The position numbers and the translations under genes are program-made. This document shows positions 3,081 to 53,812 of a stretch of DNA of 57,554 nt, one piece after another; positions within the stretch are counted from its first letter, which is position 1; the number at the start of each line of letters is the position of its first letter. Under the pieces are notes generated by a model. The model was not told where the DNA came from, ran no database searches, and saw nothing but the letters and a program-made list of their open reading frames with translations. Source of the DNA: an uncultured delta proteobacterium (lineage in GTDB: Bacteria; Desulfobacterota; Binatia; UBA9968); contig CAWFJP010000026.1 of NCBI GenBank assembly GCA_963816145.1, forward strand, positions 1 through 57,554, written 5' to 3'.

Positions 3081-4042
3081 ATCGGATCGGGGCTCGCAAC
3101 CTTCTCTCGATATTGTTGATCGTGCTGTTCACGGTTGTCGGCCTCGACGGGAGCGCTTCGGCGCAGACGCAGAAGGTGCGCATCTCGATATCGAGTCGGA
3201 GCAATACCAGCGTGCCGTATTACGTGGCGATGAGCAAAGGATTTTTCCGCGAAGAAGGGATGGATGCGGAGATCATTCAGGCTAATCCTCGCCTGGGGGT
3301 GATGGCGCTGATGAACGGCGACGTGTCGTTCACCGGCACATTTGTCAGCACGGTGCGCGGGATTTTGTCCGGCTTTCCGTTGAAGATCGTGCTCGTCGCG
3401 TTCAAAAAAGGCGTTTATTACCTGATCGCTCATCCGAGCGTGAAAGATGTTCAGGATCTCAAGGGCAAGAAGCTCGGCGTGTCGAGTATCCGCGGTGCGG
3501 ATCATCTGGTCGCCGAGGAACTGCTGCGATCCAAAGGACTCAATCCGGCGCTGATGCAACCGGTGGTGCTGGGTGATACAGCCGTGCGCTTACAATCCGT
3601 TATTACCGGTGCCGTCGAGGTGACGACGCTGTCGCCGCCCCATGATTTGATGGCTCAGAAGGCCGGTGTCAAAGTCCTCGCCGGGCCGCCGGAGATCGGC
3701 ATGCCGGCCTCGGGCATGATTACCTCCGAGCGCTTGATCAAAGAGAATCCAGCATTCGTCCGGCGCGGCGTGCGGGCGATGCTGCGCGCCAACCGGTTTA
3801 TAGACGAGAACCGTGCCGAGACGATCAAGGTGTTGCTCCAATGGGTCAAGCAGACCCCGGAGATCGCCGCGCGCTCCTACGACGTCGAGCTGAAATCTAT
3901 TTTGCGCGACGGCACCATGACCGACGCCGAGATTGAAAGCTTCATCGACAGACTTGGCAATGAGAAAAAACGGTCCATTGACGACGTGCGCGATTTTTCA
4001 TTCGTGCGCCAGGTATGGAAAGAGCTGGAAAGCGGGCGATAG
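3071..4042 (+). CDS. ABC substrate-binding protein, NMT1/SsuA-like (tandem paralog of 2079..3041)
   Basis: Shares ISSRSNT, GPPEIG and DGTMTDAEI with its upstream neighbour. The start is uncertain because it lies in a 7-mer repeat tract. Confidence 0.9.
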   Translation: MENDRIGARNLLSILLIVLFTVVGLDGSASAQTQKVRISISSRSNTSVPYYVAMSKGFFREEGMDAEIIQANPRLGVMALMNGDVSFTGTFVSTVRGILSGFPLKIVLVAFKKGVYYLIAHPSVKDVQDLKGKKLGVSSIRGADHLVAEELLRSKGLNPALMQPVVLGDTAVRLQSVITGAVEVTTLSPPHDLMAQKAGVKVLAGPPEIGMPASGMITSERLIKENPAFVRRGVRAMLRANRFIDENRAETIKVLLQWVKQTPEIAARSYDVELKSILRDGTMTDAEIESFIDRLGNEKKRSIDDVRDFSFVRQVWKELESGR

Positions 4043-4052
4043 CGCGCTTTCC

Positions 4053-4086
4053 AATTGATAATTGAGAATGGAGAATTGAAAATTAT
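4053..4086. repeat. 7-mer tandem tract (AATTGAN/AATGGAG)
   Basis: CAATTGATAATTGAGAATGGAGAATTGAAAATT. Confidence 0.7.
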
Positions 4087-4094
4087 CGGACTGA

Positions 4095-4334
4095 TTAGGA
4101 CGGCCGCACCCTGCTGCTCTGGTCATCCGCGTCAATCTTACGCCGCTGCGACTTCCAGCCGTGCAGGCCCATAGCCAGAAACATCAGGCCGGTGAATAGC
4201 CAGCCGATGGCGACTTTCGATTCGGGATTGGTGAGGATGTCCGGACGGCCCAGAACATCGCAGGCAGTGAAAACCGCGCCGCCGAGAAACGGCAGTGATA
4301 AGATGAGTGCGGTAATCCAGACGAAGGCTTTCAT
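4095..4334 (-). CDS. small hypothetical membrane protein (2 TM)
   Basis: 79 aa with two hydrophobic stretches and a basic C-tail; fills an intergenic gap. Confidence 0.55.
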   Translation of the reverse strand: MKAFVWITALILSLPFLGGAVFTACDVLGRPDILTNPESKVAIGWLFTGLMFLAMGLHGWKSQRRKIDADDQSSRVRPS

Positions 4335-4611
4335 CGGTAGGGTGGCAATTGCCGAAGTCCCGCCAAACTGAAAATCAAGATTGGCGGCCGCTGTCGAACT
4401 GATTGCCTATGATGTTGGCCGCTGTCTTCAGTTCCTCGCGCGATGGTCCGTCCTAGGCATCACGAGATGCCCCGATGATCAGATGCGGCAGCAGGACGAG
4501 CAGGCAAATTTCAATATCACTACCAGCCGGTTAGGTTTTTTTTCTCGATTGCGGCAAGGGCCGATCGTCAAGATTCGGACGGTCATGCATCGGTGCTCAT
4601 AGCGTGGAAAT

Positions 4612-5592
4612 TTATAATGGAATAGATCTTAGAATATCGAGAACGCTCATAGAGTCAAAATCGGGCTTGGTCTTTTTCTTAACGATAACCTGATAGTCCT
4701 GGTGGAGGACGTCAATGTAGTGTCGAAAGACATTCAAAAACGCATCGATCGCCGGCCTTGGTACGAGCGCAGGGGATTGATTTTCGGCCGGGCTTCTTCT
4801 GAGTCCGTAGTCGTCGAAAATAATGATACCGCCGGGTTTGAGGTTGTCCCATACCAGCACAGCGTCGACCAAAACGTCTTTAGCCACGTGAGAACCGTCG
4901 ATATAGACAAAATCAAACTTGTCATTCAGCGTCCTTAGTACAAATTTTGAGTCCCCTTTGAGTTTTATCAGTTTATGGCCTTTCCCCGATGCTTTGACGT
5001 TGTGGTCGAAGGTCGAATCAAAGTCCTCCTCGAAAAGATCAAGACAAGTTATTGTCGAGGCATCGTCAGTGAGAACTTTCGCGAGAAACCAGAGGGCGGA
5101 GCGTCCTTCGTAACTGCCGATTTCTAGAGCGTGGATATTGGGTTTACCGACGAATTCTGCCAAATGCTTCGACCAAATTTGTGCATTCGCACTGACACCA
5201 TCGGTACTAAATTTGTATCGAGATTCAACCGGGAGGGACTCGATGTGCAGTTTCGAGCGGATCTCAAGGGCCGAAGAAGCGACGAAAGCGACCGACATCG
5301 CAAGGATAACGTAGCTTGTCAGGCGCAGTATTAAACTCTGTCGGATTGAAATATGATGCGCGGTCCGCTTCAGCACGATTGCTAGCAACATCAATGCGCC
5401 GGACAAAAGCAGCCCCCGATGAGTTATGGTATGGAGCAACGCCCAATAGGATTCCATACCCCACTGAGTTTGCAGAAAATAGCCGGCCATCACCGAGGTG
5501 ACGGCTAGTCCGCTACTTGACAGCGCTAAGGTGTTCGAAAGCACTTTCTTCTGTTGCTCGTTAACGGTCATTCGTTCTCTCCTACCGGTCAC
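4612..5592 (-). CDS. class I SAM-dependent methyltransferase (Methyltransf_24-like) with N-terminal membrane segments
   Basis: LEIGSYEGRS, FDFVYIDGSH and LKPGGIIIFDDY motifs; about 3 hydrophobic helices N-terminally; visibly lower GC. Confidence 0.85.
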   Translation of the reverse strand: MTGRRERMTVNEQQKKVLSNTLALSSSGLAVTSVMAGYFLQTQWGMESYWALLHTITHRGLLLSGALMLLAIVLKRTAHHISIRQSLILRLTSYVILAMSVAFVASSALEIRSKLHIESLPVESRYKFSTDGVSANAQIWSKHLAEFVGKPNIHALEIGSYEGRSALWFLAKVLTDDASTITCLDLFEEDFDSTFDHNVKASGKGHKLIKLKGDSKFVLRTLNDKFDFVYIDGSHVAKDVLVDAVLVWDNLKPGGIIIFDDYGLRRSPAENQSPALVPRPAIDAFLNVFRHYIDVLHQDYQVIVKKKTKPDFDSMSVLDILRSIPL

Positions 5593-6779: not shown

Positions 6780-7484
6780 ATGACTGTTGCTGATCGGCCA
6801 GATGTGGTGACGATTCCCGAGGGCGCGTTTCTGATGGGCTGCGAGGCAGGCCAGGAGAACGAGCGGCCGGTGCATCGCGTGTGGCTGGATCGCTTCGCGT
6901 TGGGCAAGTTTCCCGTGACCAATCGCCAGTACCGGGAATTCCTCGAATCGACCGGCACGGAGCCGCCCCGGTTCTGGTTGGAGCCGATGTTCGCCGATCC
7001 GCGCAAACCGGTGGTCGGCTTGACCTGGTTCGAGGCGGTCGCCTATTGCCGCTGGCTGGAATTGCAGACGGGCGAATCGTTCCGCTTGCCCACCGAAGCT
7101 GAATGGGAACGAGCCGCGCGCGGCGGGCGGGAAGGCACACTTTTCCCCTGGGGCGATGACCTGCCAACCGAAGGGAAAATGATCGGTTGCGATGCGGAAA
7201 ATGGCGGCCCGGCTCCAGTTGGCGCTAACCCGCCCAACGGCTTCGGTCTTTACGACATGAGTGAAGGTGTGCATGAGTGGTGCAGCGATTATTATGAATA
7301 CAATTACTATCGCGACTCTCCCGAGCGGAATCCCCAGGGTGCGGCGTCCGGTGAGCGGCGCGCTTCGCGCGGTGGCTCCTGGCGCCATCAGATCAAGTTC
7401 GCCCGCTGCGCGGCGCGCAGCTCGCTGCCACCGAGCTTCGAATATTCAGATTACGGCTTTCGCGTGGCGGTGACGGTCGGATAA
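6780..7484 (+). CDS. formylglycine-generating enzyme (SUMF1/FGE-sulfatase) domain protein
   Basis: FLMG, PVHRV, PVTN, RLPTEAEWERAARGG, NGFGLYDM, RGGSW and GFR motifs. Confidence 0.92.
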   Translation: MTVADRPDVVTIPEGAFLMGCEAGQENERPVHRVWLDRFALGKFPVTNRQYREFLESTGTEPPRFWLEPMFADPRKPVVGLTWFEAVAYCRWLELQTGESFRLPTEAEWERAARGGREGTLFPWGDDLPTEGKMIGCDAENGGPAPVGANPPNGFGLYDMSEGVHEWCSDYYEYNYYRDSPERNPQGAASGERRASRGGSWRHQIKFARCAARSSLPPSFEYSDYGFRVAVTVG

Positions 7485-7486
7485 GT

Positions 7487-7522
7487 TCGTTCCATAGGTT
7501 CCAGTTGTTCCAATCGTTCCAG
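7487..7522. repeat. 9-mer tandem tract (GTTCCAATC family)
   Basis: GTTCCATAGGTTCCAGTTGTTCCAATCGTTCCAGG between convergent genes. Confidence 0.75.
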
Positions 7523-7533
7523 GTGGCTATCGA

Positions 7534-8496
7534 CTATTTCGCGGTTGCCGGGAGAAATCCGGCGTCGACGAAAGTCTCCCAGGATTTTTTTTCGGGGATC
7601 AAGTTATCCATGGCGAGCAGGCGGATCATTTCGGTCAAACCCACCGGGTCGACTAAGCTTTCGCCGCGATACGAGCGGTTTTCCGGAACCATGAATTTGA
7701 ATGTCCGGGCGGCGACGGTCTCGTCGATCTTCAAGCGCTCCATCATGACGCGCACGGCTTCTTTTTCGTTGGCGGGATCGTTCAACCAGCGCATGGATTG
7801 GCCGATGGCGCGTATAAAGCGCACCAGCACCGGGCGCATTTGAGCCAGCGACTTGTTCGACGCGAAATAGGAACCGTATTGCAGGCTTTTTATTTCGTCG
7901 GAATAATTGAGCAGCACTTTTTTGCCAGCGTCGATGGAGCGAAAGTTGTAGGGCGGCGCTTCGGCGAGAGAGGCGGCGACTTGGCCGGACGCCACGGCTT
8001 GAAATCTTTCCGGACTGCCGCCGATGGATAGAATTGAATAAGCCGAGGGCGGAATGCCTTGGCGCTGCATGACGTCTTTGAAGATCGTCGTGGTGATACT
8101 GGCCACACCGGCGCCGGCGATTTTCTGGCCTTTTAGATCGGCAAGGGATTTGAACTGCGGCTGGCCGATCACTTGATAGGCGTAGCCGTAGGTCGAGGCG
8201 CCGATGATTTTCAACTCTCCGCCGCGCGACGCGGCGATCAGGCCGAAGTGGGTGCCGGATTTTGCTATGTCGACGGTGCCGGCGAGCAGCGCTTTGATCA
8301 CCAGATCGGGCTGCATGTAGGTCGGTTCGAACTCGATGTTTTCCTTGGCGAAGAACCCTTTTGACAAGGCGACGATCTGATCGAGGTCGAAGGCGGTGAT
8401 GTTGGTCGAGCTCATCGTCACCTTGTGGGCGGCGAAAGTCGTCGAGTGAAAAGCGATGGCAGAGGTAACGATAACGATTCGTGTTAAATGGCTCAT
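7534..8496 (-). CDS. ABC substrate-binding protein, NMT1/SsuA-like
   Basis: GFFAKENIE, DLKGQKIA and GGSPERFQAV motifs; paralog of 8808..9777. Confidence 0.9.
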   Translation of the reverse strand: MSHLTRIVIVTSAIAFHSTTFAAHKVTMSSTNITAFDLDQIVALSKGFFAKENIEFEPTYMQPDLVIKALLAGTVDIAKSGTHFGLIAASRGGELKIIGASTYGYAYQVIGQPQFKSLADLKGQKIAGAGVASITTTIFKDVMQRQGIPPSAYSILSIGGSPERFQAVASGQVAASLAEAPPYNFRSIDAGKKVLLNYSDEIKSLQYGSYFASNKSLAQMRPVLVRFIRAIGQSMRWLNDPANEKEAVRVMMERLKIDETVAARTFKFMVPENRSYRGESLVDPVGLTEMIRLLAMDNLIPEKKSWETFVDAGFLPATAK

Positions 8497-8518
8497 TATG
8501 ACTTCTTTAAATTGGGTT

Positions 8519-8793
8519 ATTCACCACGAAGGACACGAAGAGCACGAAGTTAGGAATAATAATTATCCGAGCCCTTCGTGTCCTTCGTGCTTCCTTTGAA
8601 ATAAGGCGCTGTGCGGATAGAGAGCCCTCACCCTTCCCTCTCCCGCACAGCGGGCGAGGGTAAGAAAGTAGACAAAGACGTTCAATGCTCTGCGGCCGAA
8701 AACCCCCTCGCCCATTCCGATGGGAGAGGGTCGGGGTGAGGGCAATTTCATTATCTGTAGACGAGCGTAAGCTCCTGAACACTTCGTGGTGAT
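8519..8793 (+). mobile_element. R2 palindromic repeat (CACCACGAAGGACACGAAG...CTTCGTGGTGA) filled with a 191-bp insert (8591-8781) carrying a CCCTCACCC..CCCTCTCCC REP pair
   Basis: Flanks are nearly identical to the empty copy at 24345-24428; the insert is homologous to 31623-31907. Confidence 0.8.
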
Positions 8794-8807
8794 AAACTCT
8801 GCTCCGC

Positions 8808-9777
8808 CTATTTGCTCCCCGGCAAGAACGCCGGGTCGACGAAACTCTCCCAAGGCTTTTTCTCCGGGAATCATTTTGTCTTCGAAAAGCAGGCGCACCA
8901 TTTCCGCCATGCCGGGGCCGTCGACGGCGCCTTCGAGGCGGAAGGATTTGTTGTCCGGGATCATGAATTTATAAGTTTGTGCCGCTAGCGCCTCGTCGAT
9001 CTTGAGATTTTTTGTCATGAGCTCGACCATGGGCTTTTCATTGGCCGGATCGTTTATCCACCGCATCGCCTGGCCGATGGCGCGCATAAAGCGGGTGAGC
9101 ACCGGGCGGTTTTGCGCCAACGATTTGGTCTGGGCGAAGAAAGACGTGTACTGCAAGTTCTTGATCTCATCGGAATACTTGAGCAGCACTTTGCGGCCGG
9201 CCTCCACCGAGCGGAAATTGAATGGCGGCGCTTCGGCCAGCGATGCTACCGCCGCGCCGGCCGCGACGGCCTGAAATCTTTCCGGGCTGCCGCCGACGAA
9301 AACCAAGGTGTAGGCGGAGGGCGCAATGCCCCGGCGCTGCATGACGTCTTTGAAGATCGTCGTGGTGATGCTGGCCAGCGAAGCGGCAGCGATGCGCTGT
9401 CCCTTCAAGTCCGCGAGTGTTTTGATTTGCGGCTGGCTGATGATTTCATAGGGATAACCGTAGTTCGAGCCGCCGATGATCTTCAGCTCGCCGCCGCGCG
9501 ACACGGCGATGACGCCGAAGTGGGTGCCGGAGCGCGCCAGATCGACGCTGCCGGCGAGTAGCGCCTTGATGACCAGATCGGGCTGCATGAATTGCACATC
9601 GACATCGAGATTTTCCTTGGCGTAGAAACCTCTTTCCTTGGCGACCACATGGTCCATGTCCAATGCGGTCGGGTTGGTCGAGCTTAATGTCAACTTGTCG
9701 GCGGCGTATGTTTGGACCGCCAGACCGATTGAGCCTAACACAGCCAACATGATGAGATTGATCACGGATCGTTTCAT
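8808..9777 (-). CDS. ABC substrate-binding protein, NMT1/SsuA-like; 1-bp frameshift near 8866
   Basis: RBS GGAGG before ATG 9777. Removing one base near 8866 restores EKKPWESFVDPAFLPGSK*, matching the paralog C-terminus EKKSWETFVDAGFLPATAK. Confidence 0.85.
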
Positions 9778-13445: not shown

Positions 13446-13565
13446 GAAATACCTCCTACAAGTTTCGGACTGACAGTTATCCTGGAACGACGTGGAACTG
13501 CAAGCCAAGAGGGAGGAGGAAGTCAGAAGGCAGAAGTCGGGAGTCAGTAGTCAGAAGTCCGGATC

Positions 13566-13592
13566 TGTCATTTCGAGCGTAGCGAGAAATCT
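13566..13592. repeat. R3 REP-like palindrome TGTCATTTCGAGCG.AGCGAGAAATCT
   Basis: Other copies at 14752-14778, 14881-14907, 14922-14949 and 36993-37019. A 7-mer AGTCAGA tract precedes it at ~13520-13560. Confidence 0.8.
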
Positions 13593-13645
13593 GTGTTATT
13601 CCGAGCAGTGACCGAAAACGGGGTTGAACCCTTGGTAAATTGTCC

Positions 13646-14649: not shown

Positions 14650-14751
14650 TGCTTTCACCGGGCTAACGCCATGGCCCTATTGATCTTTTGACCTATTTGC
14701 TACCCATGGCGCTGTCGTGTTGTAGTTTTTTACTATCCCGCCGATTCGAAT

Positions 14752-14778
14752 AGATTTCTCGCTCCGCTCGAAATGACA
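14752..14778. repeat. R3 REP-like palindrome (reverse orientation)
   Basis: AGATTTCTCGCTCCGCTCGAAATGACA. Confidence 0.8.
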
Positions 14779-14836
14779 ACTCTTGAATTGCTGTCATCCC
14801 GAACCAAGAGAGTGGTCGGTCCGAAGCGACCCCTGG

Positions 14837-14969
14837 GTAGTGGTTCAGTTTGAGTCGGGCGGACATTTTCAGCCTGAGAAAGATTTCTTGCTGCGTTCGA
14901 AATGACAGAAGAATAGTCGATTTGTCATCTCGAACGAAGTGAGAGATCTCGGTCTGACTGAACCACTAC
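14837..14969. mobile_element. MITE-like element with 13-bp perfect terminal inverted repeats enclosing an R3 REP pair
   Basis: GTAGTGGTTCAGT (14837-14849) and ACTGAACCACTAC (14957-14969); internal inverted R3 copies. Confidence 0.65.
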
Positions 14970-15691: not shown

Positions 15692-15719
15692 GGATGCCGT
15701 TGAGATATGTCTCAACGGC

Positions 15720-15760
15720 CGTTCCAGTCGTTCCAAAGGTTGCAAACGTTCCAATCGATT
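15720..15760. repeat. 9-mer tandem tract (GTTCCAATC family)
   Basis: CGTTCCAGTCGTTCCAAAGGTTGCAAACGTTCCAATCG. Confidence 0.75.
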
Positions 15761-15801
15761 CGTAGCTGACTTCCCGACTCAATTCGAACACGAATACGTT
15801 C

Positions 15802-17641: not shown

Positions 17642-17659
17642 GTTTCGGACTCCTTAACT

Positions 17660-17797
17660 CGTTCCAATAGTTCCAATCGTTCCAGCGGTTCCAATCGTTT
17701 CAGAAATCCGAACCCTGGAACTTTTGAGCCTTGAATCGCAACGCAAGTCGCATCTTGAACCGACCGGAAACCTTGAACTTAGAACCTTGAACCTTTT
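17660..17797. repeat. 9-mer GTTCCAATC tract followed by a 7-mer AACCTTG tract
   Basis: GTTCCAATAGTTCCAATCGTTCCAGCGGTTCCAATCG ... AACCTTGAACTTAGAACCTTGAACC. Confidence 0.75.
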
Positions 17798-20394: not shown

Positions 20395-20447
20395 AGAACC
20401 TCCGAAAACGATTGGAACTACTGGAACGACTGAAACATTTGGAACAT
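20395..20447. repeat. 9-mer tandem tract (reverse of GTTCCAATC)
   Basis: GATTGGAACTACTGGAACGACTGAAACATTTGGAAC. Confidence 0.7.
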
Positions 20448-20456
20448 ATTCTTTGT

Positions 20457-21221
20457 TTAGGTGGTGCTCGCGAACCCACCGTCAACGATAATAATCTCGC
20501 CGGTGACAAAGCGGTTGTGCAGGATCAGGCTCAGCATGCTGTCGGCGACATCGTCTTCGGTGCAGCAGCGTTTGAGCGGCGTGTATTTGGCGCGGCGCGC
20601 CATCAATCCTTGGTAGTTTTCCGCCAGCGTCCGCTTCATCCACTCGCCTTCGATCCAGCCTGGCGCCACCGCGTTGACGCGGATCTGCGGCCCAAGGGCG
20701 TTGGCGAGAGTCTTGGTCAGATTGGCCACCGCCGCTTTGCTGGCAGCGTACGGCAGCGGTTGGGCGCTGGGCCTGAGACCGGCGATGCTGCAAGTGTTGA
20801 CGATGCAGCCATTGGGCGATTGTTTCAGCAGCGGCGCGGCCGCCCGGGTAACCAAGAACAAGCCGAGCACGTTGACGTTGAACACGCGATTCCAGTCTTC
20901 TACTTTCATCGCGTCAAAATCCTTCGGATCGACGTCCACCGTCGTGCCGGCGTTATTGATCAGCACGTCGAGGCGGCCGAATTGTTTTTCCGTCGCCGCC
21001 AGCATGGCGCGCACGCCGTCGTCGTCGCTGACATCACAGCGCTGAAGCAGCGTGCGTGCGCCGGCAGATTCGCATTGCTGCGCGGTGAGCTTAGCGGCGT
21101 CTTCACTGCGGCTAAAATTGACGACAATGTCATAGCCGTTCTTGGCCAGTGTGACCGCCGCGCTGCGGCCAATGCCGGTGGCCGCGCCGGTTACTAGAGC
21201 AACAGGTTTTGGATCGGTCAT
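20457..21221 (-). CDS. SDR family oxidoreductase
   Basis: TGAATGIG, NNAG, YAASK and RVNAVAPG; start set at ATG 21221. Confidence 0.93.
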   Translation of the reverse strand: MTDPKPVALVTGAATGIGRSAAVTLAKNGYDIVVNFSRSEDAAKLTAQQCESAGARTLLQRCDVSDDDGVRAMLAATEKQFGRLDVLINNAGTTVDVDPKDFDAMKVEDWNRVFNVNVLGLFLVTRAAAPLLKQSPNGCIVNTCSIAGLRPSAQPLPYAASKAAVANLTKTLANALGPQIRVNAVAPGWIEGEWMKRTLAENYQGLMARRAKYTPLKRCCTEDDVADSMLSLILHNRFVTGEIIIVDGGFASTT

Positions 21222-24344: not shown

Positions 24345-24428
24345 ATTCACCACGAAGGCACGAAGGACACGAAGGGTTTGGATAATTGTTATTCCTAACT
24401 TCGTGCTCTTCGTGTCCTTCGTGGTGAA
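24345..24428 (-). repeat. R2 palindromic repeat, empty form (~85 bp)
   Basis: TTCACCACGAAGGCACGAAGGACACGAAG...CTTCGTGCTCTTCGTGTCCTTCGTGGTGAA. Confidence 0.85.
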
Positions 24429-27931: not shown

Positions 27932-29679
27932 ATGATCGAGACCGAAGGATTGACCGGCGCCGATACTTTATTGCGCGTGTTATCACATATGGGCGTGGAT
28001 CGAATTTTTTCTTCCCCCGGCTCGGAGTGGGCGCCGGTGTGGGAGGCATTCGCCAAAGCCAAGGCGCAAAGCGAGGGCGTGCCGCAGTATATCAGCTCGC
28101 GTCATGAAGAGGTCGCCGTCGGCATGGCCAGCGGCTACGCCAAGTCGACGGGAAAACTTGCCGCGGTCATGATCCACACGACCGTCGGCGCGCTGCACGC
28201 GACCATGGCGCTGCGCGGTGCGCTGCATGAACAGATTCCCATGGTCGTGTTTACCGGCGAGTCGTTGGGCTTCGGCGAAGAGGCGGGTCCGGACGTCGGC
28301 GCGCAATGGCTCGGCGCTTTGGCCGACATCGGCGGGCCGGCGCGTCTCGTCGATCGCTGCGTTAAATGGAGCTACGGCGTCAATGCGAAATCGCTATTGC
28401 CGTCGACGATTCAGCGCGCCTGCCAACTGGCGATGGGCACGCCGAAGGGACCGGTGTTCGTCTCGCTGCCGATGGAATATTTGTTCGACAAAATGACCAA
28501 GAACGCGGCGGCGGAAAATGTCCCGATTCCGGCGCCCATGGCCGATCCGGCCGCGCTCGACGAATTCGCCGCGTCCCTCGCCAGCGCGAAAAATCCGCTG
28601 ATCATCACCGAGGAGGCAGGACGCGACCCTCAGGTGGTCGAACAACTCGTCGAGCTGGCCGAGCTGCTCGGCGCGGGCGTGGTCGAAAGCCGCGCGTCGA
28701 GCTACATCAACTTTCCGCGCACCCATCCGCTGCACGCTGGCTTCGAGCCGATTGAATTCTTGCCGGAATCGGACGTGATTTTTCTTTTGGGAGTGGTTGC
28801 GCCCTGGCATCCGGCTTCGCGAAAATTAAATCCAGGAACTAAACTCGCGGTCTTGTCAGATAATCCGCTGCGTTCGGAGATGCCTTATTGGGGCTATCCG
28901 GTCAATCAAATTCTTACCGGCGAGATCGCCAGCTCGATGAAGCATCTGCTCGAGGCCGTGAAGAAAAAAGTATCCAAGGGAAATGGCGAGGCCGCGCGCC
29001 GCGCCGAAACCTGGCGCGACCGTCACGCGGCGCGTCGGGCGAGCTGGCAGGAGGACGCGCTCAAGCGCAAAGAGCAAAAACCGATCGACACGCGCTGGGT
29101 TACCCACGAGTTGGCGCAAGTCATTCCAGCCGATGCCATCGTCGTCGAGGAAACCATCACGCACGACTATCGATTCACCGCTATCTCGACATGCTCAAGC
29201 CCGGCACCTTCTTCGCCGGCTGCATCGGCGGGCTCGGCACAGGGACGGGCACCGCTCTGGGCGTCAAGGCGGCGTTTCCCAAGCGGCCAGTTTTGTGTCT
29301 AATCGGCGACGGCGCGTTTAACTACGATCCCGGGCTGGCGGCGCTCGGGGTTTGTCAGGAACACAACTTGCCGATCATGATCGTGCTCTTCAATAATTAC
29401 GGCTACCACTCGCAAAAATCCGGCGTGCCGCGTTTCTTCCCGGAGGGCTTCGCAGTGAAAAACCAGGACTTCATCGGTATCTCGATCAGTCCCAGTCCGG
29501 ACTACGCGATGATCGCGCGCGCCTTCGACGGCTACGGCGAAAAAGTCGAAGAGCCCGGCGAAGTGCGCGCCGCGCTCCAACGCGGTCTCAAAGCGATTGC
29601 CAGCGGGCAGGTGGCGCTGATCGACGTTCGCTTGGCGAAAGCGGCGGAGAGTAATGAGCGGCCGGATCGGGCGAACTGA
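27932..29679 (+). CDS. thiamine pyrophosphate-binding enzyme (ALS/benzoylformate decarboxylase-like); frameshift near 29165
   Basis: PGSEW, RHEEVAVGMASGY and PKGPVFV, then GGLG.G.G and GDGAFNY..FNN in the second frame; RBS AGGAG. Confidence 0.88.
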
Positions 29680-29903
29680 ATGACCCTCTGCTTGAAGCGA
29701 GGGGGTTCTGAATTTGTCGACTGGAAGTCAACTCTTCCGTCCGTCATTCCGGCGCAGGCCGGAATCCAGGTTTTCTTTGGCTTTGCAGCGCGAGCGAAGA
29801 TGGATGCCGGCCTGCGCCGGCATGACGAATCCTCTCTTCGCCTGAAGCATGTCCTGAGCGCTGACGAAGGGGCGAGGGATTTCAAATATCCCCGAAAGGG
29901 ACA
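29676..29903 (-). repeat. R1 composite repeat copy 2
   Basis: Its reverse complement aligns with 1838-2064; it overlaps the upstream gene's stop codon. Confidence 0.9.
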
Positions 29904-30030
29904 TAAATCTCTCTCTCGATCAGCGTTGAAATGCCGCGCATTCCGACGGATCGAAAGTTTGTCATGCCGTTGGAAACCGGCAGGTGACGGGAAAACAGTC
30001 CAACGGCGAATCCCGTAAGGAGAAATATTT

Positions 30031-31622: not shown

Positions 31623-31907
31623 TTCACCACGAAGTGTTGATGATTTTAGGCTCGTCCACAGATAATGAAATTGCCCTCAGCCCCCTCCCTCTCCCATCGG
31701 AATGGGCGAGGGGGTTTTCGGCCGCAGAGCATTGAACGTCTTTGTCTGCTTTCAATTACCCTCGCCCGCTATGCGGGAGACGGGAAGCGGTCTGAGGGAT
31801 CTCTATCCGCACAGCGCCAGATGTATTTTCAAAGGAGGCACTACGGACATGACGGTTCGGAAAATTAAGTTTCCGGACTTCGTGCTCTTCGTGCCTTCGT
31901 GGTGAAA
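31623..31907 (-). mobile_element. R2 repeat filled with an insert homologous to 8591-8781
   Basis: Same insertion point and insert ends (CTCCTTTGAAAATA...TTATCTGTGGACGAG); the internal sequence matches the 8.6-kb copy. Confidence 0.8.
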
Positions 31908-34366: not shown

Positions 34367-34658
34367 TATCACCACGAAGGACACGAAGCGCACGAAGGTA
34401 AGAAAGTTTGAGATTCCGAACTTCGTGGCCTTCGTGCGCTCCTTTGAAAATAAGCCTGCGAAGATGATCTACCGAACGAAGAGACCGCCTCGCTCCGTCA
34501 TACCCGCGAAAGCGGGTATCCAGGCTCATTCGGCTCTGAACAAACCTGGATTGCCGCCTGCGCGGGAATGACAATTCGAAGAGAGGATCATGTCAAGGGA
34601 GATCCTCCAATTTTATATTCTGTAGACGAGTGTCAGCTCATGGTTACTTCGTGGTGAA
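34367..34658 (+). mobile_element. R2 repeat filled with a 209-bp insert (34438-34646) carrying a GTCATACCCGCGAAAGCGGGTATCCA REP pair
   Basis: Same insert ends as the 8.6-kb and 31.7-kb copies (CTCCTTTGAAAATAAG...TCTGTAGACGAG) but an unrelated interior. Confidence 0.75.
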
Positions 34659-36916: not shown

Positions 36917-36992
36917 TGCATGAAGCAGAGACGCAGACTGAACGTTCTGGCCTGATCCATCATGTCACCTGGGTTGACAACCGCTGGACAAT

Positions 36993-37019
36993 TGTCATTT
37001 CGAGCGCAGCGAGAAATCT
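36993..37019. repeat. R3 REP-like palindrome
   Basis: TGTCATTTCGAGCGCAGCGAGAAATCT. Confidence 0.8.
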
Positions 37020-37077
37020 CTTCGGTCCCAAGCAGCTACAGCCAAATTCATCTGAAAGACGACCAAAGGCGGCCAGC

Positions 37078-38778: not shown

Positions 38779-38790
38779 AAGAGAAAATCC

Positions 38791-38890
38791 GTTCCAATCG
38801 TTCCAAACGTTCAAGCCGTTCCAATCGTTGACGGACGAAGAATCGGATTCGGAAATTTAACCGCAAAGGGCGCAAAGAACGCAAAAAACT
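38791..38890. repeat. 9-mer GTTCCAATC tract plus AACCGCAAAG-type 9-mer tract
   Basis: GTTCCAATCGTTCCAAACGTTCAAGCCGTTCCAATCG and AACCGCAAAGGGCGCAAAGAACGCAAA. Confidence 0.7.
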
Positions 38891-48848: not shown

Positions 48849-49050
48849 TGAATGACCTTCGGCTTCAAGTTGAGGTTATGAGTTGGCCGAGTAGAAGTAG
48901 ACTCTTCCTTTCGTCATTCCGGCGTAGGCCGGAATCCAGGCTTTCTTTGCCCGTGCAGTACAAGTGAAGATGGATGCCGGCCTGCGCCGGCATGACAAAT
49001 CTGCTCATTTGCTGAAGGCGACGGATTTCAGTCCACCCCCGAAAATTACA
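48849..49050 (-). repeat. R1 composite repeat copy 3 (lacks the 24-bp internal insert)
   Basis: Its reverse complement aligns with the other R1 copies. Confidence 0.88.
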
Positions 49051-50277: not shown

Positions 50278-50481
50278 TGTCGCTCTCAGGCATCGTTGAA
50301 ATCTTTCGCGTTCAGGTGAAGTGAAGGTTTGTCATGCCGGCGAAGGCCGGCATCCATCTTCGCTCATTCTGCAAGGCCGAATAAAGCCTGGATTCCGGCC
50401 TGCGCCGGAATGACGGAAAGAAAAATCGACTTCCAGTCGACAAATTTAGAACCCCTCGGCTCAAAGTAGAGGGCCGATCAG
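50278..50481 (+). repeat. R1 composite repeat copy 4 (lacks the 24-bp internal insert)
   Basis: Aligns with 1838-2064 and ends just before the dinB-like RBS. Confidence 0.88.
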
Positions 50482-50496
50482 TTCGGGAGGAAGTTT

Positions 50497-53660: not shown

Positions 53661-53781
53661 GAACACGTCTGTCCTCATCGACGCGTTTCTAGACGATCTT
53701 CATGTCCCGGCCCGTGACTTTTTCGTCCGAGCGCATTCTACACGGTAAATTCTTGAGAGTCTCGAATTTTTCCGCCTTCGA

Positions 53782-53812
53782 ACTTCGTGATCTTCGTGTC
53801 CTTCGTGGTGAG
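53782..53812. repeat. R2 half repeat
   Basis: CTTCGTGATCTTCGTGTCCTTCGTGGTGA. Confidence 0.7.

Follow-up and report, generated by a model that had tools for sequence, protein, structure and literature searches.

The locus at 8519-8793 of the window, by which we mean the whole 57,554-nt stretch of DNA that was analysed, raises a question with two parts: what is the 191-bp sequence that splits a palindromic repeat at a single base, and by what means could it have been inserted there? The window is contig C26 of a soil Binatia metagenome-assembled genome (7.82 Mb in 31 contigs, 99.5% complete), referred to below as the source genome. We call the repeat R2 and the inserted element X. We conclude, with a probability of roughly 0.88, that X is a gene-less miniature of an IS110-group insertion sequence (IS) that inserts at one base of R2.

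Element X interrupts the R2 repeat at one base

In the window, X (approximately 200 bp) interrupts the approximately 80-bp R2 repeat at one base, directly 5' of CTTCGTGGTGA. Read along the + strand, 8519-8793 has the order TTCACCACGAAG-GACACGAAG-AGCACGAAG-loop-CTTCGTGTC-CTTCGTGC, followed by 191 bp and then by CTTCGTGGTGAT. The stretch from 8519 to 8590 (+ strand) is the body of the host repeat, made up of the left terminal TTCACCACGAAG, two 9-mers, the loop and two inverted 9-mers ending in ...CTTCGTGC, and the stretch from 8782 to 8793 (+ strand) is its terminal 12-mer, which holds a CT core and the part of the target that is copied by the helper's guide, as described below. An empty copy of R2, representing an unoccupied target, lies on the - strand at 24345-24428, and its reverse complement corresponds to the repeat at 8519-8793 without the 191 bp. 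When the left part of the filled repeat (8520-8590) is compared with 24358-24428 of the empty one, the two are 96% identical over 71 nt. The continuation of the repeat in the filled copy is CTTCGTGGTGA at 8782, and 8591-8781 (191 bp) is an insert at the slash in ...CTTCGTGC/CTTCGTGGTGAA. A CT dinucleotide is common to both junctions of X in R2, and there is no target duplication.

Two further R2 copies in the window are interrupted at the same base, by an insert in reverse orientation at 31635-31837 and by one in forward orientation at 34439-34646. All three inserts start with (C/T)TCCTTTGAAA and end in TCTGT(A/G)GACGAG plus approximately 16 nt. A preliminary description of this DNA had reported the 191-bp insert at one base of R2, the interruption of 31623-31907 and 34367-34658 at the same position, and shared insert ends without a direct-repeat duplication. 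All of this is borne out: the match to the empty copy delimits the insert, the two other repeats are interrupted at the very same base, and CT is all that the two junctions have in common.

X copy 1 (8591-8781, 191 bp) is a miniature IS110-family element whose transposase sense, as defined by its parent IS, is the - strand; its LE terminus (approximately 40 nt) runs downward from 8781, 8591 is the last base of its RE terminus (...AAAGGAA), and between the two lie CCCTC...GAGGG hairpins that form an inverted pair. X copy 2 (31635-31837, 203 bp, transposase sense on the + strand) belongs to the subfamily of copy 1, to which it is 87% identical over 202 nt. Its host repeat is on the - strand, with the terminal 12-mer at 31623-31634 and a body at 31838-31907 in which the inner 9-mers are degenerate. 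X copy 3 (34439-34646, 208 bp, - strand) has the same termini but represents a different subfamily, with an interior that is an inverted pair of GTCATACCCGCGAAAGCGGGTATCC-type hairpins, and the R2 that hosts it has its body at 34367-34438 and its terminal 12-mer at 34647-34658, both on the + strand. At 53759-53811 (+ strand) there is half an R2, consisting of the right arm only and ending in CTTCGTGGTGAG, which is unoccupied.

The window contains several other repeats. Arrays of 9-mers (nnGTTCCAn) in tandem and inverted order, with an R2-type architecture, are present at 7479-7536, 15711-15768, 17642-17717 and 38781-38829, and also at 20401-20457; at least four such 9-mer families (CACGAAG, CACAGAG, CGCAAAG and GTTCCAA) occur in the lineage. 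A repeat of approximately 130-230 bp with GTCAT(G/T)CCGGCG...-type hairpins is found in both orientations, at 78-84% identity, at 1834-2064, 29672-29906, 48874-49030 and 50297-50489. A small repeat, TGTCATTTCGAGCG.AGCGAGAAATCT, is located at 13555-13608, 14747-14800, 14881-14965 and 36971-37035 of the window and also in the C1:154666 region. On contig C1 one copy of this small repeat is nested inside an X copy, which indicates layered insertion of different mini-elements.

X and R2 in the source genome

The exact 10-mer ends of R2 occur 204 and 200 times in the source genome, and 131 of the 157 left-right pairs of exact ends span 67-91 bp, meaning that they are empty. When one mismatch per end is allowed, the empty R2 copies number 176, and the same search finds 15 copies of a sister repeat, R2' (CACAGAG/CTCTGTG). 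A probe for the right end of X identified 47 inserts and a left-end probe identified 7 more. Both ends could be defined in 49 copies, which are 180-222 bp long with a median of 200. An 18-nt motif from the X end is found 49 times in the genome as compared with 2 times for the reversed control, a difference that is far beyond chance. Both probes gave short copies only, and no X copy longer than 222 bp is present in this genome save those with nested insertions.

The census of insert ends and junction bases that the preliminary description had called for reveals a junction position that is not random: in 46 of the 49 copies the sequence after the insert is CTTCGTGG or CTCTGTGG, one mismatch being allowed. 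Overall, 38 copies have a CTTCGTGG-like right flank and 8 have a CTCTGTGG-like one; the right flank of the remaining 3 is of another kind. CT is found at the start of 40 of the 49 inserts and directly after 45 of them, with no longer direct repeat. The CTTCGTGGTGA side of the target is preserved in nearly all copies, whereas R2 is often missing from the other side, and at least four copies (C2:40693, C3:213646, C12:127040 and C3:536861) have no R2 body on the left yet have a CTTCGTGG-type right flank. Such one-sided use of the target fits a guide that is long on one side and short on the other.

Three unrelated types of interior are found on the same X termini, namely inverted hairpin pairs of the GTCATACCGGCG... 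type, of the GTCATACCCGCG... type, or of the CCCTC...GAGGG type, the last being that of window copies 1 and 2. The ends of X are not inverted repeats of each other, and duplication is limited to the 2-nt core. A classical MITE, which was among the candidates, is ruled out by this lack of terminal inverted repeats and of a target site duplication; hence we describe X as MITE-like, as is MITEPpu9.

An autonomous IS110-group partner in related genomes

We searched for a partner of X with a 24-nt right-end pattern, using one genome per species, and obtained 10 loci. At one of these, L052 (6111 bp), the X right end is preceded by an opposite-strand ORF that matches DEDD_Tnp_IS110 and Transposase_20. 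The element at L052:3644-5187 is 1544 bp long and its 422-aa ORF (3674-5092) matches DEDD_Tnp_IS110 (PF01548) with an E-value of 1.9e-29 and Transposase_20 (PF02371) with an E-value of 1.9e-15. As in X, the element starts with CTCCTTCGAAAAT, directly after ...CTTCGTGTG, and ends in ...TCTGTAGACGAGCGTAAGCTCATGAATCA (...GCTCATGAATCA). Adjoining it head-to-tail is a 205-bp X copy, after which comes CTTCGTGGTGAG. Of the 90 genomes of the family, 9 contain homologues of the partner recombinase with 74-87% amino acid identity, and three of these 9 belong to the window's genus.

Full-length copies of the partner IS are 1.54-1.55 kb long, and the 12 copies that we tabulated range from 1168 to 1552 bp; the L054 copy, which comes from an unpublished genome, was excluded from every claim. 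In 9 of the 12 copies the 5' flank ends in CCACGAAG, which is the base where X sits, and the other 3 are at other targets, each matched by the copy's own guide. In the recombinase sense the arrangement reads ...CACCACGAAG / TGATTCATGA... recombinase ...AAATTTTCGAAGGAG / GnCACGAAG.... Both the flank and the RE end in ...AG, such that a dinucleotide core is shared and there is no target duplication. Approximately 245 nt lie between the element start and the ATG, and approximately 30 nt follow the stop codon. This combination of a long 5' end and a short 3' end places the partner in the IS110 group. The preliminary description had assigned the insert to the neighbourhood of IS110/IS1111 elements, and the first half of that label is retained while the second is dropped: with a right end of approximately 30 nt and guide segments in the left end, the IS1111 group is ruled out for the partner.

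The termini of X and of the IS correspond closely. The X 'right end' is the first approximately 40 nt of the IS and the X 'left end' is the last approximately 13 nt; on the LE side the match is 94% over 32 nt, and on the RE side the shared sequence is ATTTTC(T/G)AAGGAG. X has no recombinase, and guide segments A and B, described below, are found in 0 of the 49 X copies. The IS110-type, repeat-targeting relatives that the preliminary description had envisaged are therefore represented by an IS with the same termini and the same R2 insertion base. It had also suggested looking for longer copies that enclose a recombinase, and these are absent from the source genome but present in related genomes in the form of the 1.54-1.55-kb IS.

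We made several further observations on these ends and loci. The first approximately 40 nt of X and of the IS (for example, window 8742-8781, minus strand) contain a small hairpin, CATGAGC-TTAC-GCTCGT, followed by ATGAAAATG. In a divergent pair of IS copies, L067 and L071, the sequence of the terminal hairpin differs and still pairs (GTACC-AAT-CGGTAC). The conserved terminal hairpin extends well past the few bases that a donor guide would read. RE/LE joints in L052 and L056 belong to tandem elements in linear contigs, and no X circle junction was seen among contigs, the only material searched. L052 (JBIMKD010000277.1) carries a full-length IS with up to 87% recombinase identity to the Binatia copies. 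Its bin is a Chromatiales MAG from another habitat, which reflects either horizontal transfer or mis-binning, and the IS has as neighbours a transposase gene of the IS66 family and an ORF with a match to DruA (Druantia). At L045 (JBGTCC010000598.1, approximately 540-870), an X copy is cut off on the left by an unrelated stretch that contains an ORF and is probably a further insertion sequence. At the end of one contig (G046:C4:34-113), the terminal motif is present three times with a spacing of exactly 31 nt, which suggests a tandem array of an approximately 31-nt unit from the IS terminus.

The 5' end of the IS matches both its target and its own 3' end

Segment A, located in the interior of the IS 5' end, repeats the final 6-8 nt of the 5' flank without a mismatch in all 12 copies, which together represent four target types (CACGAAG, CACAGAG, GCAAAG and CAAAGGAG). 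In nine IS copies a 5' flank of CACCACGAAG is accompanied by a segment A of (A/C)CACGAAG followed by TG. The corresponding flank and segment are ACCACAGAG and ACACAGAG plus TG in L057, GCGCAAAG and GGGCAAAG plus TA in L067 and L071 (51% recombinase identity), and TTTTCAAAGGAG and GCAAAGGAG plus TG in L052, which adjoins the end of an X copy. Segment B is identical to the 3' end of the element, with CGAAGGAG accompanying an element end of ...TC(G/T/A)AAGGAG, and CATAAGAG accompanying ...TCATAAGAG in the divergent pair. In IS621, the left target and donor guides equal the top strand of the left target and donor plus the core (PMC11208160), and segments A and B both fit this left-guide rule. An equivalent of the guide for the other half of the target (RTG) was not found in the IS 5' end.

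An RNAalifold prediction from eight 5' ends has an outer stem that encloses two stem-loops, with 9 of 50 pairs compensated. Segment B falls in an internal loop of this structure and segment A is partly paired, the loop model being only approximate. Guide and target change together among the copies, as do guide and element end, and from this covariation in sequence we infer that the IS 5' end would give rise to a structured RNA of the bridge-RNA type. A handful of copies had at first suggested that a guide inside X covaries with the type of host repeat; the remaining copies did not confirm this, and the idea has been discarded.

The L052 copy differs from the others in its target. At L052:5080-5200, the target-copying segment CAAAGGAG corresponds to the end of the adjacent X and not to R2. 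This match between segment A and the neighbouring X end suggests that the guide was retargeted and that the insertion was not an off-target one; the L052 guide looks as if it had been redirected onto the junction of a resident element, as judged from this one copy.

A proposed route for the movement of X

We propose that the parent of X is an IS of approximately 1.55 kb that encodes a DEDD recombinase and would carry, in its approximately 245-nt 5' non-coding end, a structured RNA of the bridge-RNA type. One segment of this RNA would repeat the last 6-8 nt of the target (CACCACGA plus AG in the transposase sense, equivalent to CT plus TCGTGGTG on the + strand of the window), and another would repeat the 3' end of the element itself. 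Guided in this way, the IS would insert at one base of R2 with no target duplication, leaving the 2-nt core on both sides. X keeps only the two termini that the RNA would read as 'donor', namely approximately 40 nt of the 5' end and approximately 13 nt of the 3' end, placed around unrelated hairpin DNA, and its excision and insertion would depend on a full-length relative as the source of recombinase and guide RNA in trans.

Since X contains neither a recombinase nor guide segments, it must be moved in trans, and by analogy with IS621 we infer that an RNA guides the recombination by which this would take place. A 22-bp donor is sufficient for IS621 when the bridge RNA is provided in trans (PMC11208160), which makes an element consisting of little more than termini a plausible substrate. 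The preliminary description's view of X as a non-autonomous, repeat-targeting element is thus supported by the discovery of the partner IS and by the absence of a recombinase and guides from X, while the mobilisation in trans that it also put forward is presumed from the same features.

No cognate helper was found in the source genome. A single IS110-family gene is present (on contig C13), with 37% identity and unrelated ends; it was rejected as a mobiliser, and the 12-mer that it has in common with X is due to chance. When three full-length IS sequences were compared with the source genome by BLAST, the only matches were to IS nucleotides 1-40/43. We likewise saw no sign of current X activity, in that no pair at different loci is more than 96% identical, a segmental duplicate aside. 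With no matching helper and no pair above 96%, the copies look old, and the 49 copies in the source genome are probably relics of past bursts whose helper is absent from it. The eight copies in CTCTGTGG repeats form a subfamily of their own, the youngest, which agrees with the former presence of an L057-type helper.

The 18-nt terminal motif, with up to two mismatches allowed, occurs in 61 of the 90 genomes of the family, three of which are unpublished, with 49 occurrences in the window's genome and up to 66 elsewhere, as compared with 0-2 per genome for the reversed motif. In the assemblies searched, the miniatures are much more widespread than the recombinase (61 versus 9 of 90 genomes), a contrast that is an upper estimate because IS copies are often lost from fragmented assemblies. 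A wider scenario can be sketched from these distributions, and we offer it tentatively, as one that may well prove wrong. The IS lineage might retarget by small edits of one guide segment, tracking the 9-mer families (CACGAAG, CACAGAG and CGCAAAG), with one variant reading the end of a resident miniature and building tandem arrays. Guide-less miniatures would long outlive and outnumber their helper across the family, each subfamily would record the specificity of a past helper, and some copies may be structured RNA or terminator modules.

Alternative explanations

The same census bears on whether R2 and X spread as one composite unit, in which X would have entered a repeat once and the filled unit would then have been copied by whatever spreads R2. 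Among the 26 X copies in recognisable R2 bodies, the identity between X copies is uncorrelated with that between host repeats (Mantel r = 0.07, p = 0.27) or host loops (r = 0.10, p = 0.22), in a comparison whose power is limited by the short host sequence. The lack of a correlation argues against one insertion followed by duplication; the preliminary description had named a single ancient insertion, with the filled copies forming one clade, as the outcome that would speak against its proposal, and this is not what we observed. Of all 1176 pairs of X copies, only C14:233408 and C22:4065 are identical; these two have their flanks in common as well and represent the segmental duplicate. The next most similar pairs, 95-96% identical and at different loci, sit in hosts that are only 25-65% identical. 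A composite origin is also difficult to reconcile with the X copies, at least four in number, that lack an R2 body on one side, and with the presence of the full-length IS at the same base at unrelated loci in several genomes. It does find support in the correlation of X subfamilies with the type of host repeat (eight of one subfamily in CTCTGTGG repeats), which different helpers also explain, and in the comparison with related species, where R2 and X are jointly absent from the orthologous intergenic sites examined and no locus was seen at which R2 is empty in one genome but contains X in another. The spacers in G003, G004, G007, G021 and G023, genomes with approximately 73-90% DNA identity to the source genome in the flanking genes, either have no R2 or have other repeat families and yielded no empty-versus-filled orthologue; being without R2, they are uninformative on X alone. 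Spacers orthologous to 8500-8800 turn over quickly between species. The one at L006 (G023:C347) is a nest of repeat families with a CACGAAG-type arm first and a CTCTGTGGTGAA arm last. When 8200-9100 was compared with public metagenome contigs from four runs, one contig, from an independent run, was found to bridge both filled junctions of X copy 1 (8562-8862). No clean empty joint between 8590 and 8782 was found in the four runs, whose contigs cannot exclude an empty allele, and a joint between 8589 and 8743, one side of which spans 25 nt, is most likely derived from other copies. On balance, we regard a composite unit as very unlikely.

Elements moved as single-stranded DNA by Y1/HUH transposases (IS200/IS605-type or RAYT) also insert beside a short target without duplication, and X, with its small hairpin close to one terminus and its interior pair of inverted hairpins, could be read as a palindrome-associated element of this kind. 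The source genome does contain seven Y1_Tnp matches, but none of these genes is flanked by R2 or X termini, TnpB was not found in the genome, and the termini of X are instead those of an IS110-family element, all of which renders movement by a Y1/HUH transposase scarcely credible. Three of the Y1_Tnp ORFs (C29:1577-1903, C3:259404-259727 and C18:98882-99208) are approximately 320-330 aa in length with long C-terminal extensions, and that on C29 is preceded by a duplicate of its own first approximately 200 nt; all three are unrelated to R2 and X. A different possibility, compatible with the main explanation, is that X was once mobile and is now kept for a host function as a structured 3'-UTR, a terminator or a small RNA, a suggested precedent being ssr9 in MITEPpu9 (PMC12288879). 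The persistence of copies without a helper in the genome and the excess of the motif over the recombinase across the family would both be accounted for in this way, as would the recovery of the filled allele at 8562-8862 from an independent metagenome run. Although the filled unit folds far better than shuffled sequences (z = -6.6), strong folding is expected of any nested palindrome, and the presence of three unrelated interiors on the same termini speaks against such a function. Rfam likewise gave no match above threshold, with only sub-threshold chance matches (miRNA and frameshift models) in 8300-9000. A promoter scan of the region identified a single weak site, which lies inside R2, and no site at the X terminus. 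We consider retention for a host function unlikely, and we retain the reading of X as a miniature of an IS110-group IS.

Implications and comparison with known systems

Identification of X as an IS110-group miniature accounts for a conspicuous class of intergenic repeats in Binatia genomes, in which one repeat is nested within another, and it carries a warning for annotation, in that these 200-bp units are relics of mobile elements and should be taken neither for new RNA genes nor for a new recombination system. Guide-less, gene-less derivatives are seen to reach approximately 50 copies and to persist where the helper is gone. The series of partner IS copies (51-87% recombinase identity), in which guide and target change together, should be useful for studying how target specificity evolves. 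IS110-family elements that target REP sequences are said to have been described by Tobes and Pareja in 2006.

The preliminary description had presented the insert as a candidate for an undescribed system, a claim that does not hold given that a MITE-like derivative of an IS110-family element that inserts into REP is already in print in the form of MITEPpu9 (PMC12288879). Like X, MITEPpu9 (the ssr9 module) of Pseudomonas putida KT2440 is gene-less, has two ends that are nearly the same as those of an IS110-family IS, in its case ISPpu9, and is inserted in REP. It also occurs both beside the IS and alone, has tandem arrangements, and has been proposed to use the IS recombinase in trans (PMC12288879). 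The published account gives 8 copies of MITEPpu9 together with 7 copies of ISPpu9 and reports minicircles, whereas X has 49 copies and no helper in the genome (PMC12288879). X further differs from the element described there in having three interiors, no known sRNA gene, uncultured Binatia hosts and a 9-mer palindromic target, and in being known from sequence alone (PMC12288879). ISPpu10 and other REP-targeting elements of the IS110 family, whose insertions as reported all lie in one conserved intergenic repeat, are full-length, unlike X (10.64898/2026.03.19.712850).

As for the partner IS, it resembles IS621 in its DEDD and Tnp domains, its long 5' and short 3' non-coding ends and its REP-type target, and likewise in the shared 2-nt core, the absence of duplication and the RNA segments that equal the left target plus core and the left donor plus core (PMC11208160). 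The partner core is AG on the recombinase-sense strand as compared with CT in IS621, and the target sequence differs (PMC11208160). In addition, no guide for the right target half was found in the partner, whose RNA is predicted, in contrast to the IS621 RNA (PMC11208160). The IS1111 group has in common with the partner the recombinase family, site-specific insertion and the absence of target duplication. That group is defined by a long 3' end with the guide RNA and by subterminal inverted repeats of 7-17 bp (PMC11208160), whereas the partner has a 5' end of approximately 245 nt and a 3' end of approximately 30 nt.

Tandem accumulation of non-coding units beside IS110 recombinase genes has been reported, as have products of half-matched targets (10.64898/2026.08.14.744561, 10.64898/2026.08.31.748434). 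The head-to-tail IS/X and X/IS arrangements in L052 and L056 match the tandem IS110 products in those reports, and the tolerance of X for non-R2 sequence on one side of the target fits the half-match products (10.64898/2026.08.14.744561, 10.64898/2026.08.31.748434). L052 departs from the tandem products in that the very segment with which it copies its target corresponds to the adjoining X end (CAAAGGAG). To this known kind of element, X adds a high copy number without a helper and several interiors on the same termini, and it also adds a spread over an uncultured Binatia family and a clean natural series of guide and target changes.
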